In this document: positions 16,962 through 19,699 of the stretch, piece after piece
Layout: the number at the start of each line of letters is the position of its first letter
Position numbering within the stretch: position 1 is the first letter of the stretch
Origin: Massalongia carnosa
Lineage: Eukaryota
Reading direction: 5' to 3'
NCBI GenBank assembly: GCA_965645245.1
Contig: OZ287073.1
Location: 1 to 64,000, forward strand
DNA length: 64,000 nucleotides
The notes under the pieces: model-generated
Told to the model about the DNA's origin: nothing
What the model saw: only the letters and a program-made list of their open reading frames with translations
Databases searched by the model: none
Made by a program: the position numbers and the translations under genes

Positions 16962-18085
16962 ATGCCTTCCCATCGCCCTCAAAGAATCACCAAGCCTTCC
17001 GCCCGCTCCGGAAACACCTCCGGGCCTGGTCAACGTCCCACTCGTTCTACCCGACCCCCTAGGGGAGGGGCCATAGTTCCAGAAACACAGCATCCTCCGA
17101 ACACTCAAGGCTCGGAAGGAACACTTCGGGGCGATGTGATAGACGTCCACCGAACACCGGAACCAACCCTGGACCTGCTGTTGGACCTCAGGGCTCAGCA
17201 GGAGGCCACGGCGACAGCCCTCAGGCAGGAGGAGACCCGTCACCTTCAAAAGCAAATCGCCGACAACTTGGCGGCCATTCAGCGCATAAGGGAAGGAAAC
17301 ACAGTCCCCGAGGGTAGGCAGGAGGCACACACTCCCCACCCGAACCAGCTACTGCCCGCTGAAACCGAAGGTACGGATCCATGTCTCCTTCCTCTAATTA
17401 TCGAGTATCCCGCCATAAACAGCAATTATTTCCGACAAATTCTGAACAACAAATTCGATCCCATAAATATTTCCAAGCTCTGCACCGATGTAGTCTTAAT
17501 CAAACCAACTGTCAAACGAGTGAACCTGGCCAAAGGATACGAGTTAATACAAGAAGAAGACGATGCGTCACCAGGAGACATCAAGGAACTACCTCACCTG
17601 ATTCGCTGCCTCGGGGTGTATTGGCAGGTCTTGCTTCATTTGGCACCATCCGGAATAAAAGACAGTCTTTGTAGGGCCTTTCAAATCTATCAGACCGCTT
17701 GTTGTTACATTACACAATCTACACTTGGGAGTCAGTACGAGTATTTCATATAATCTTCCACAGGGGTCGGGTGTACCAGGGGGTGAACGACCCGGCCGGA
17801 TGGAGGAGAATCGACACCACCGTCGAAAACATGTACCTTACTCGACGGACACCTAACTTGTCCATGACGGGAGGTACCACCAAGCAGCACCCGGGATCAA
17901 TTCCGGTAGGCGGCTCCACTGAACCAAAGCCTATGTCCTGCAATCGATACAACGCAGGGCGGGAATGCAAGGAATGCAGGTGTCCTCACGTCTGCAGTCT
18001 CTGTTTCGGCCATCACACGAAAAACAACTGCCCCAAGGCAAATATTAGCAACCCAAATTTCATGTCAACAGGTAGACGAGATTGA
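16962..18085 (+). pseudogene. gag: Element 1 gag-like protein (C-terminal Cys/His zinc finger), frameshift near 17695
   Basis: ORFs 16962-17753 and 17699-18085; YTWESVR.FH; CNRYN...C..C...HVCSLC...H....C. Confidence 0.85.
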
Positions 18086-19699
18086 CTAGCCGGCCCATTT
18101 GATCATATCGCCGAAGGGTTCCCCTATCCGCTGATAGATAAATCAGCAATCGTACCCTCAGGGCCTCTAAGAAAAGAAGGCTGGGAACTTCACCTCATGG
18201 GTCATCCGGAAAAAGTTTACAAACAGACCATTCACGATATAATCGTGTACGGGGCCAAAATTGGTTACACCGGCCCAGATCAGTTCATTCTAAGCAGCGA
18301 CCTGGCCTCGGCCAACGAGGCCCCAGAAATTCTAACCATGGACGTAGAGGACCAAAGGGCCAAAAACCGATTGATCGAGGTGCCCACCCTACCAGCCAAA
18401 TATATATGCTCCCCCTTAGGCTTAGTCCCCAAAGCAAACGGAGGATGGCGCCGTATTCATCACCTCTCCCACCCCGAGGGTAATTCGGTGAACGACTTCA
18501 TTCCCGAGGAATGGGGCGCTCTGGAATATATCACTTTCGACGAAGCCCTCGCCGGCGTCAGAAGAATAGGCAAGGACTGCGTACTGATCAAACGAGATTT
18601 AGCCGATGCCTTTCGCCACGTTCCAGTGGCGCAAAGCGATTGGTGGTTGCTGGGTTTTTGTTGGAACGGGGTTTACTGGATAGAACGCTTTCTTCCATTC
18701 GGCCTCAGGACGTCTCCCTTCTTGTTTGACTTATTCGCGAAAGGTCTGAACTGGATGATGATTAATAAAACAAATGGCGAAGTTATTCACTACTTGGACG
18801 ATTTTCTCGGAATCGTTCGCGCTATTCCCGATGCGGCATCCTTCGATCGGAACTTTGCCGAAATTTGTTCAGACCTCGGCCTAAAAATCAACGAAAAGAA
18901 AAATAAATAAGGCACGGTAGTCGAATTCCTGGGCATAGAGCTGGACACACACCTGATGCAGGCACGAGTACCGGCCGAAAAGCTTCAGAAAGCTAAGGAT
19001 CTCGTCCAATCAACATTGAATAAATCCACGATAGCCAGAAACGAGCTAGACACTTTGCTGAGATTTCTGTGCTTTGCAGCCAAAGTGGTGGTACCGGGAA
19101 GAACCTTTCTCCGACGCCTTTTCAACAGCAAAATCGGGCCCGCGCGCCTATTTATTCATATCAATTCTCACATAAAAGCTGATCTTTTATGGTGGCATCA
19201 TTTCCTTCCATTATGGAACGGCATACACATTATTAGCCCTTCGAGACCCCTGCTCCGTCTCTGGACGGATGCCAGTGGGGACTTCGGAATCGGGGCATAC
19301 ATACTTCAAGGTGGTCAGACCACACACACATTGCCCGCTGAACAAGTGGTTTCTGAACGTTATACCACCAGGCTCAGAGCCAAACATATCAATGAGAAGG
19401 AGATGACAGCGATTTTGCACGCCATATGGCGGTGGCTCCCCATGTGCAAGGGAGCTCATCTTCTTCTTTATTGCGACAGCTTTGCTGTAATGTCCGGGGT
19501 CAAAAAGACCTCCATTCGAGGCGGGGCCATGCATCCCCTCCGGAATATCGCCATGATGGCGGCAATATATGACATTGAGATTGAACCACACTGGCTGTCT
19601 ACCAAAGAAAATTTCTTAGCAGATTGGTTGTCCCGAGGACTATTTGGAAAAATCGCTGACAATTACCCCAACCTGCAGGGCATTTCATCGAACAAATAA
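18086..19699 (+). pseudogene. pol: Element 1 reverse transcriptase / RNase H, in-frame TAA at 18908
   Basis: SPLGLVPK..GGWRRIHHLS, LPFGLRTSP, HYLDDF, WTDASG, N..AD.LSR. Confidence 0.92.

Follow-up and report, generated by a model that had tools for sequence, protein, structure and literature searches.

Conserved splice-site-like signals point to a probable spliced Gag-leader mRNA for the tyrosine recombinase of Ngaro-like retroelements in Massalongia carnosa

The window, a 64,000-nt stretch of Massalongia carnosa DNA (contig OZ287073.1, positions 1 to 64,000), contains four Ngaro-like retroelements, E1–E4, each with the gene order gag, RT/RNase H (pol) and tyrosine recombinase (YR) (Table 1). 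Pfam searches of the E2 pol product identified both RVT_1 (3.5e-14) and RT_RNaseH (1.4e-7). Pol is 538 aa long and consists of RT and RNase H only, with no methyltransferase domain and with YR encoded downstream. The last ORF gave a sub-threshold Phage_integrase match (2.3e-4; 21.4 bits against a cut-off of 27.1), and 1466 homologues were retrieved, several of which are called "integrase" by their source. At E ≤ 0.01, gag, pol and YR matched no further Pfam family, and neither a protease nor a DDE integrase was found. E1 and E3 are degenerate copies with YR broken further downstream; in E1, a frameshift occurs soon after the conserved YR N-terminus (about 19770–19790).

Table 1. Coordinates of the four elements and of the proposed exons, introns and splice signals in the window.
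Element	Feature	Position	Strand	Details
E1	Exon 1	16962..17370	+	gag ATG to first base of Gly codon GGT (136 codons + 1 nt)
E1	Proposed intron	17371..19678	+	2308 nt; donor GTACGG 17371-17376
E1	Intron contents		+	gag core; gag stop TGA 18083-18085; pol with nonsense TAA 18908-18910
E1	Branch motif and acceptor		+	GCTGAC 19655-19660; CAG 19676-19678
E1	Exon 2	19679..20723	+	YR; conserved N-terminus in frame with exon 1
E2	Whole element	28867..33276	-	4410 nt; ends taken from loose ends of contigs joining 3' to 5'
E2	Exon 1	32399..32852	-	gag ATG 32852 to G 32399 (151 codons + 1 nt)
E2	Perfect 14-nt tandem duplication	32379..32406	-	donor doubled: GT at 32398 and 32384
E2	Proposed intron	30088..32398	-	2311 nt (2305 nt if AG at 30094); donor GTATGG 32398-32393
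E2	Intron contents		-	gag core; gag stop TGA 31686-31684; pol 31683-30067
E2	Branch motif and acceptors		-	GCTGAC 30111-30106; AG at 30095-30094 and 30089-30088
E2	Exon 2	29051..30087	-	intact YR ORF; frame opens at 30106, -1 to pol
E3	Exon 1	41154..41550	-	gag ATG 41550 to G 41154
E3	Proposed intron	38186..41153	-	2968 nt; donor GTGCGT 41153-41148
E3	Branch motif and acceptor		-	GCTGAC 38209-38204; CAG 38188-38186
E3	Exon 2	37159..38185	-	YR; degenerate, with frameshifts
E4	Exon 1	48514..48823	-	first gag ATG 48823 to G 48514
E4	Proposed intron	46128..48513	-	2386 nt; donor GTGAGA 48513-48508
E4	Intron contents		-	gag stop TAG 47812-47810; pol with one frameshift near 47160
E4	Branch motif and acceptor		-	GCTAAC 46151-46146; CAG 46130-46128
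E4	Exon 2	44980..46127	-	intact YR ORF

The elements resemble the Ngaro group of the DIRS order, including the fungal clades of PMC3783388, in the order of gag, RT/RNase H and YR. They also share with that group the lack of a protease, a DDE integrase and a methyltransferase, and a YR frame that often differs from that of pol. Unlike Ngaro elements, E2 carries an 8-nt inverted repeat at its ends and is represented by contigs that join its 3' end to its 5' end. A search for split direct terminal repeats (A1 ... B1 A2 B2) around E2 returned no direct repeat of at least 25 nt (seed 11), a setting that shorter or diverged direct repeats could escape, and the only repeat seen at the 5' end of E4 was a tandem duplication of 74–75 nt. 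Because split direct repeats were not found, we call the elements Ngaro-like rather than members of Ngaro.

In all four copies the YR frame is −1 to pol, opens just past a stop inside the motif GCT(G/A)AC, and contains no ATG between this opening and the conserved PPxxW motif, in agreement with a preliminary description of the window in which the conserved YR N-terminus had been reported to lack a start codon. The same description had placed a branch-point-like GCT(G/A)AC and a CAG ahead of each YR, and a phase-1 donor-like G|GT in each gag; both signals were found in every copy, the latter always in a Gly codon GGT. Donor and acceptor are both phase 1, so that every join continues into YR at its conserved PPxxW start. 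In-silico joining was in frame in 4/4 elements, as had been claimed, and produced a complete ORF of 496 aa in E2 and 485 aa in E4. The 14-nt duplication in E2, which is lacking in one contig of run X2, breaks full-length gag and spares the joined Gag-N::YR frame.

We then compared the window with 80 related metagenome loci; lineage counts refer to 37 lineages with mutual identities below 90%. Of the 69 loci in which the end of pol and the start of YR are both present, 65 have YR in the −1 frame relative to pol. At the branch motif, the pol codon is GCT in 25 and ACT in 12 of the 37 lineages, so that its wobble position is T in 37/37, whereas the wobble positions neighbouring this codon have entropies of 1.2–1.9 bits. 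The following codon is GAC, AAC, GAT or AAT, and the Gln codon is CAG in 33/33 cases; background frequencies in the same elements are 0.21 for GCT, 0.22 for ACT and 0.48 for CAG. With the pol motif LADxLSR, not the stop codon, as the anchor of the alignment, NCT was present in 58/62 loci, and no other Ala or Thr codon occupied the branch position in these 62 loci. NCTRAY as a whole was found in 61/69 loci, and it also occupies the homologous place in E1, L048, L057 and L071. A YAG follows CTRAY, with its AG 13 or 19 nt past the branch A. In most relatives, as in E2, an AG lies 13 nt past the branch A and 6 nt upstream of the CAG; because it shares the phase of the CAG, the E2 acceptor may be either the AG at 30094 or the CAG at 30088.

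The donor is conserved in the same manner. Its codon is NGT in 26/26 gag clusters (23 GGT and 3 AGT), with CGT in locus L007, and position +5 is G in 24/26 clusters. Where Thr follows the donor codon, it is encoded by ACG in 12/13 cases against a background of 0.14, and in a large clade the sequence is GTAYGT in 20/20 clusters although the next residue may be Y, F, S, C or L. The four window donors were counted as fitting GTRNGT, the 5' splice-site pattern of U2-type GT-AG introns; all four fall below consensus at position +6, a point against the splicing interpretation. Homologues thus show no free choice among synonymous codons at the branch and acceptor residues (A-D/N...Q), where the preliminary description had named such freedom as contradicting its proposal, nor at the gag Gly; the test it set came out in its favour. 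No other conserved donor or acceptor was found in gag core, pol or YR: within gag core and pol, further sites resembling a donor or a branch plus acceptor are each limited to fewer than 5 of the 37 lineages, while the branch-plus-acceptor site at the end of pol is present in 36/37. By sequence comparison, the branch/acceptor and donor motifs exceed chance, because their nucleotides are invariant in 37 lineages while adjoining wobble positions are randomised.

Such invariance might instead reflect cis-acting replication or recombination signals that merely resemble splice sites. YR retroelements do need internal cis sequences, such as the ICR of DIRS-1 (PMC7192593, in its accessible text), and yet two separate motifs here fit, respectively, the consensus of a 5' splice site and of a branch point plus 3' splice site, with matched phases, and both kinds of motif form exact ends of GT..AG skips in the contigs described below. 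We regard this explanation as scarcely credible.

We propose, with a probability of about 0.7, that YR is expressed from a spliced subgenomic mRNA encoding a Gag-N::YR fusion of about 490 aa. Full-length RNA would be translated into Gag and, in these four copies, probably also into Gag-Pol by read-through of one in-frame stop; YR would not be translatable from it, because it has no ATG and its reading frame, −1 relative to pol, is closed directly upstream. In some fraction of transcripts, a phase-1 5' splice site in a conserved Gly codon, about 135–150 codons into gag, would be joined to a phase-1 3' splice site in the last codons of pol, with a CTRAC branch and an AG 13 or 19 nt past the branch A. 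A single intron of 2.3–3.0 kb would thereby take out gag core and pol. The ORF of the resulting mRNA would start at the gag ATG and join the Gag N-terminal domain to the entire YR, and its translation product would presumably be brought to Gag assemblies by the shared Gag N-domain. Fungal introns of 2.3–3 kb are unusually long, which counts against splicing. That the gag donor pairs with the YR acceptor is an inference from signals, phase and conservation.

Contigs of the public run X4 bear on the individual sites. The kind of this run is not recorded and its depth profile is DNA-like; reads were placed at 90% likeness, a setting that carries a warning, and the joint contigs have sides of just 26–29 nt. 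On the element strand, GT..AG skips begin exactly at 32398, the E2 donor, and at 41153, the E3 donor (skip 40984–41153), and another ends exactly at 46128, the E4 acceptor (skip 46128–46462). Predicted boundaries were thus matched by 3 joints among 15 listed of 65, against about 0.01–0.05 coincidences expected for the six predicted boundaries. The cryptic partners of the three matching joints lie 121, 170 and 335 nt away, and none yields a YR fusion. The 335-nt E4 skip was considered as a Pol-YR fusion and rejected because the codon formed at its junction is a stop. The long junctions themselves (17370^19679, 32399^30087 or 32399^30093, 41154^38185 and 48514^46127) are absent among the 15 listed of the 65 joints. 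Of the gag-to-YR splicing put forward in the preliminary description, the conserved signals, their spliceosomal consensus and their matched phases therefore stand, and the long junction itself was not recovered among those listed joints.

These skips raise the alternative that the splice sites are real and are partnered with nearby sites, either as short introns or in spliceosome-mediated host control, with YR made in some other way. Fungal spliceosomes prefer short introns, and in Cryptococcus spliceosomes stalled on transposon RNAs feed RNAi. Against this, conservation of the cryptic partners is lacking: those of E2 and E3 fall at differing positions in gag, and no other site is found in as many as 5 of the 37 lineages. 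The short joins give no useful ORF. Short introns would also leave the matched phase 1 and the absence of another route to YR unexplained, and a signal purely harmful to the element would not remain invariant at synonymous sites. We consider this alternative unlikely.

Public proteins were searched for products or processed copies of the proposed mRNA. P0018 (with P0121 in the same cluster) is a contiguous 513-aa ORF in which a Gag-N-like coiled coil is followed by YR. It was rejected as a retro-copied spliced mRNA, the join falling upstream of the predicted acceptor. Judged from its sequence, it is a deletion derivative and not a clean processed copy, because its residues 104–117 resemble the C-terminal part of pol, ahead of the branch point, translated in the −1 frame; its architecture alone supports the fusion. 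With its N-terminus as query, only P0018 itself matched (1/312 candidates). Six other N-terminally extended YR proteins (P0152, P0250, P0236, P0133, P0039 and P0053) matched gag in none of the loci, and a Gag-N profile search of longer proteins found no Gag-N::YR protein, 5/5 matches being Gag or Gag-Pol. The loci L010 and L056 were rejected as processed copies since they are degraded or interrupted, and a scan of viral contigs yielded 0 relatives among 9 pattern matches.

More distant relatives encode pol and YR in a single ORF. Like E1–E4, P0195, P0144, P0149 and P0176 have a homologous YR behind RT/RNase H, with 33–42% identity to P0018; unlike E1–E4, their YR continues the pol frame, as known from the proteins alone, and therefore no splice would be needed there. 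Together with the consistent −1 frame of YR, overlaps of 34–406 nt and the statement in the accessible text of PMC3783388 that the YR ORF of fungal elements is either in frame or frameshifted, these relatives favour programmed −1 ribosomal frameshifting where pol and YR overlap, which would produce a Pol-YR or Gag-Pol-YR fusion. Such frameshifting is nevertheless very unlikely. A canonical X_XXY_YYZ heptamer occurs in the usable stretch of 1/37 lineages and in none of E2–E4, the conserved stop at the branch motif closes the −1 frame and leaves about 10–25 non-conserved codons for a shift, and the splice signals are the sole conserved feature of the usable overlap.

Translation of YR from unspliced RNA, by internal initiation, by reinitiation past the pol stop or from a non-AUG start, would also dispense with splicing. 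An in-frame ATG stands just ahead of PPxxW in 9/37 lineages, and many database proteins, such as P0002, P0004 and P0007, are called with M there. No such ATG exists in the other 28/37 lineages, including all four window copies, however, and the M in gene calls may represent alternative start codons. More than 3 kb and two long ORFs separate the YR start from the 5' end, and unspliced initiation leaves the invariant GTAYGT and CTRAY..CAG unexplained. On balance, this route appears quite unlikely, and a spliced Gag-N::YR mRNA remains the preferred reading.

The gag donor may have a broader role. Among the fungal elements of a large sister clade, the relative frames of gag and pol are random (frames 0, 1 and 2 in 7, 6 and 4 lineages), and the two genes are separated by a spacer of 250–690 nt with stops inside. 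A conserved AAGCTYAC, with YAG 11 nt later, is situated 80–95 nt upstream of the conserved pol N-terminus. An automatic rule places this site in phase 1 with pol in 14/18 lineages (chance 1/3, P = 1.5e-4, a P-value that, as throughout, counts lineages as independent though they are related), and 3 further lineages are in phase with the next AG or an alternative branch. We tentatively suggest, at slightly less than even odds, that the phase-1 gag donor is a shared leader-exon donor for alternative splicing, serving YR in the window elements and also Pol in the sister clade. If so, Gag, Gag-N::Pol and Gag-N::YR would have one conserved N-terminal domain in common, and splicing, not frameshifting or read-through, would set enzyme-to-Gag ratios and deliver both enzymes to Gag assemblies.

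Expression of the recombinase through a spliced gag leader was not found described for YR retroelements in the literature searched. The freely accessible literature covered (PMC3783388, PMC6681497, PMC7192593 and PMC8547959, each in its accessible text) contained no account of splicing as a step in the expression of Ngaro or DIRS genes; the accessible text of PMC3783388 contains neither "splic" nor "intron", and the same literature offered no explanation of how YR is expressed in DIRS, Ngaro and their relatives. Fusion of the Gag N-domain to YR through removal of a long, conserved intron would account for both the missing ATG and the −1 frame of YR. This reading predicts the junctions exactly, together with a fusion protein of roughly 55 kDa, and would simplify the annotation of hundreds of fungal elements by a single rule, for which gene callers now give truncated or mis-started "integrases". 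If it is true, YR retrotransposons have a retrovirus-like subgenomic mRNA, and these elements are natural reporters of long-intron splicing in fungi.

A close parallel is the env mRNA of avian leukosis and Rous sarcoma viruses, in which splicing from a donor only a few codons past the gag start connects in frame with the downstream gene, so that the subgenomic product begins at the gag AUG while unspliced RNA serves as genome and as gag-pol mRNA. E1–E4 would differ in that their leader exon, conserved at the protein level, spans 135–150 codons, or about 200 in the sister clade, and in that the downstream gene encodes the integration enzyme, not an envelope protein. In foamy viruses a dedicated spliced mRNA encodes Pol, and spliced subgenomic RNAs are also made by copia, by gypsy and, in plants, by Ogre elements. 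As in the model proposed here for E1–E4, an enzyme or accessory protein is thereby obtained from a spliced subgenomic RNA instead of by frameshifting or read-through; these are, in contrast to E1–E4, LTR elements with a DDE integrase.

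All four retroelements in the window (E1 to E4) carry gag, reverse transcriptase/RNase H (pol) and tyrosine recombinase (YR) genes in that order, as established by ORF maps. The pol domains were identified as RVT_1 and RT_RNaseH in Pfam, and the last ORF matched Phage_integrase under the Pfam cut-off. E2 and E4 are nearly intact, with one frameshift in the E4 RT; E1 and E3 are degenerate. A tblastn sweep of the window detected no fifth copy of the YR element. An isolated piece at 23839-23985 resembles the C-terminal tail of the E4 YR ORF (51% over 49 aa). A 583-aa ORF at 49907-51658 (+), which has a weak zinc-knuckle match, resembles the gag of an unrelated retroelement rather than that of a fifth YR element.

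The YR frame lies -1 to pol in all four elements and opens right after the TGA or TAA contained in a fungal-type branch motif, GCT(G/A)AC. As the preliminary description had reported, it has no ATG before the conserved PPxxW N-terminus (E1 by direct reading). That description had also placed a branch motif, an acceptor CAG and a gag donor in each element, and every motif was found where it had been placed. The gag Gly codon is GGT in each element, and its GT opens a phase-1 donor-like hexamer. In silico joining of donor to acceptor is in frame in 4/4, giving uninterrupted ORFs from gag ATG to YR stop of 496 aa (E2) and 485 aa (E4). In E2, a perfect 14-nt tandem duplication (32379-32406, -) lies exactly over the donor; it frameshifts full-length gag and leaves the joined Gag-N::YR frame unharmed if the first donor copy is used. 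The duplication is absent from one contig of sequencing run X2 (depth 192.8 of 509.8). A perfect GTAAGT at 32537-32542 (-), about 140 nt 5' of the E2 donor and in gag phase 0, would join out of frame to the YR acceptor; no such upstream GTAAGT was seen in E1.

Coordinates of the elements, their gag/pol stops, the predicted long junctions and the skips in run X4
Feature	Position	Strand	Length (nt)	Basis or remark
E1	about 16962-20723	+		ORF map
E2	33276-28867	-		ORF map, terminus contigs
E3	about 41550-37159	-		ORF map
E4	about 48823-44980	-		ORF map
E1 gag/pol stop context	18083-18088			
E2 gag/pol stop context	31686-31681			
E3 gag/pol stop context	40437-40432			
E4 gag/pol stop context	47812-47807			
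E1 predicted intron	17370^19679		2308	implied by joining
E2 predicted intron	32399^30087		2311	implied by joining
E3 predicted intron	41154^38185		2968	implied by joining
E4 predicted intron	48514^46127		2386	implied by joining
X4 skip	32398-32278	-	121	start = predicted E2 donor
X4 skip	41153-40984	-	170	start = predicted E3 donor; cut shifted by 3
X4 skip	46462-46128	-	335	end = predicted E4 acceptor

The acceptor side was compared across related elements. A YR protein profile retrieved 80 related loci from metagenome contigs; among these and the four window elements, 69 loci contained both the pol end and the YR start, and YR was -1 to pol in 65 of them. Among 37 lineages sharing <90% nucleotide identity, the pol codon at the branch motif was GCT in 25 and ACT in 12 (wobble T in 37/37), followed by GAC, AAC, GAT or AAT, and the Gln codon supplying the AG was CAG in 33/33. 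In the same elements, GCT accounts for 21% of Ala, ACT for 22% of Thr and CAG for 48% of Gln codons, and wobble entropy reaches 1.2-1.9 bits at the adjacent Ser, Arg, Ala, Pro and Leu codons. These saturated adjacent positions are a fairer control than the P-values from conservation counts (1e-8 to 1e-18), which assume independent lineages, and the lineages are not independent. An initial alignment used the stop codon within the motif as its anchor, which made it partly circular; when it was redone with the pol motif LADxLSR as anchor, NCT occupied the homologous codon in 58/62 loci and another Ala or Thr codon in none, the four remaining loci forming two divergent clades. Because Ala and Thr, and likewise Asp and Asn, alternate while CTRAY stays constant, the codon patterns indicate that the constraint at the branch motif is at the RNA level. 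Free synonymous codons at the A-D/N..Q residues, which the preliminary description had named as the sign of constraint on protein only, are not used by the homologues: GCT/ACT and CAG are kept.

The AG lies 13 nt past the branch A in most lineages and 19 nt past it in E1, E3, E4 and the metagenome locus L002; E2 has AGs at both distances, and either one is in phase 1 relative to YR. When gag core, pol and YR were searched for further recurring sites of donor or branch-plus-acceptor type, the pol-end site was the only one (36/37 lineages); no other was present in at least five of the 37 lineages within gag core or pol.

Gag was present in 38 loci, representing 26 clusters. The homologous donor codon was GGT in 23 clusters and AGT in 3, with CGT in the locus L007, and donor position +5 was G in 24/26. 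Where the following codon encodes Thr, it is ACG in 12/13, and ACG makes up 14% of Thr codons in these elements, less than any other. All 20 clusters of the large clade carry the hexamer GTAYGT, with Y, F, S, C or L as the residue that follows it. By its sequence, the putative gag donor matches the fungal 5' splice-site consensus, in gag phase 1 throughout.

Logan contigs of four sequencing runs (X1, X2, X4 and X5) were then aligned to window positions 29000-48900. Among 15 of 65 joints listed, run X4 contained three skips with GT..AG ends on the element strand at predicted sites. For the six boundaries predicted within 19.9 kb, chance would give about 0.01-0.05 exact matches among the 15 listed joints, compared with the three observed. 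This large excess suggests that the E2 and E3 donors and the E4 acceptor function as splice sites in vivo, whether the contigs stem from RNA or from DNA copied from spliced RNA; the X4 depth profile is DNA-like, and the joint contigs have sides of just 26-29 nt at 90% likeness. The partner ends are cryptic sites that differ between E2 and E3, none of the three skips yields a YR fusion (the E4 join creates a stop codon), and the long donor-acceptor junction was absent among the 15 of 65 joints listed. Taken together, the signals that the preliminary description proposed for Gag-N::YR splicing are real, conserved and apparently used, and we infer that the gag donor pairs with the YR acceptor. 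The interpretation is thus partly supported, with a probability of roughly 0.7.

Several other features were observed. Run X4 also has a 54-nt skip inside the E4 YR (45583-45636, -). Its ends read GC..AG along the element strand and its length is divisible by three, and it may reflect either a small intron or a deletion variant. A 74-75-nt tandem duplication is found at the 5' end of E4 (48831-48969), where X4 and X5 contigs show an additional repeat junction, from 48900 back to 48831. An insert (38437-38606, 38508-39494) splits the RNase H region of E3; it contains repetitive peptide-like units and an 83-nt tandem repeat, and it matched no Pfam family. A non-LTR-like element fragment at 42000-44600 (+) contains an RNase H domain (PF00075, 4.7e-12), and a 314-nt indel variant (42434/42749) occurs in all four runs.

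Other routes to YR were also considered. In 9/37 lineages an in-frame ATG lies between the point where the YR frame opens and PPxxW; a canonical -1 slippery heptamer is present in 1/37. By these counts, neither an own ATG nor -1 frameshifting is conserved. More distant relatives encode pol and YR as one ORF (database proteins P0195, P0144 and others), and the class therefore uses more than one strategy, in agreement with PMC3783388, in which the YR ORF is either in frame or frameshifted. The YR-related protein P0018 (513 aa; NCBI and Logan) and P0121 of the same cluster (28-kb ENA contig) are contiguous ORFs. The first ~110 residues of P0018 align to the E2 Gag N-terminus (38% over 79 aa, E = 6e-7), and the remainder is YR. 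A clean copy of spliced mRNA is ruled out by residues 104-117, which resemble a -1 reading of the pol C-terminus 5' of the branch point and mark P0018 as a deletion derivative. It shows that the Gag-N::YR protein architecture can persist, and proves no more.

The gag-pol arrangement differs in the large sister clade, where the relative frame is random (0, 1 and 2 in 7, 6 and 4 lineages) and the spacer of 250-690 nt contains stops. In these loci (L016-L080), AAGCTYAC followed by a YAG 11 nt on lies 80-95 nt (outer range 80-300 nt) 5' of the pol N-terminus. The first AG is phase 1 with pol in 14/18 lineages under an automatic rule (P = 1.5e-4), and 3 further lineages fit when the following AG or a different branch is accepted. 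Given this conserved phase-1 motif, the same gag donor may also serve Pol by splicing in this clade.

Under the proposed mechanism, full-length unspliced RNA would be translated into Gag and, in E1-E4, also into Gag-Pol via a single in-frame stop. Gag and pol share a frame with one stop between them, TGA then CTA in E1-E3 and TAG then GGG in E4; TGA-CTA is a read-through context, and the single stop suggests Gag-Pol synthesis by stop-codon read-through. Removal of the 2.3-3.0-kb intron from a minor share of the transcripts would yield mRNA for Gag-N::YR; a weakly spliced long intron fits with keeping the bulk of the RNA full-length. The leader exon is more than a start codon: in the large clade its protein sequence is conserved, comprising a basic N-terminus, a PEYSHSP motif, a LLRSHEQDIVDRVV block and a short heptad stretch adjoining the donor. 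We infer that it could recruit the enzyme to Gag or the nucleoprotein, like a Gag-Pol fusion.

E1-E4 resemble Ngaro elements in gene order and domains, but a search for direct repeats of 25 nt or more around E2 did not recover the split direct repeats that define Ngaro. The E2 termini instead form an 8-nt inverted repeat (33269-33276 and 28867-28874); the four are therefore not filed as strict members. Contigs of X1, X2 and X5 run from the E2 5' end directly into the 3' end with a 16-nt palindrome at the junction, which fits with tandem copies or with circular DNA, as expected of a YR element. No report of this type of splicing in YR retroelements was found in the literature accessible without subscription. 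The closest functional analogues are the subgenomic mRNAs of retroviruses and LTR elements; of these, the env mRNA of avian retroviruses, beginning at the gag AUG, comes nearest.
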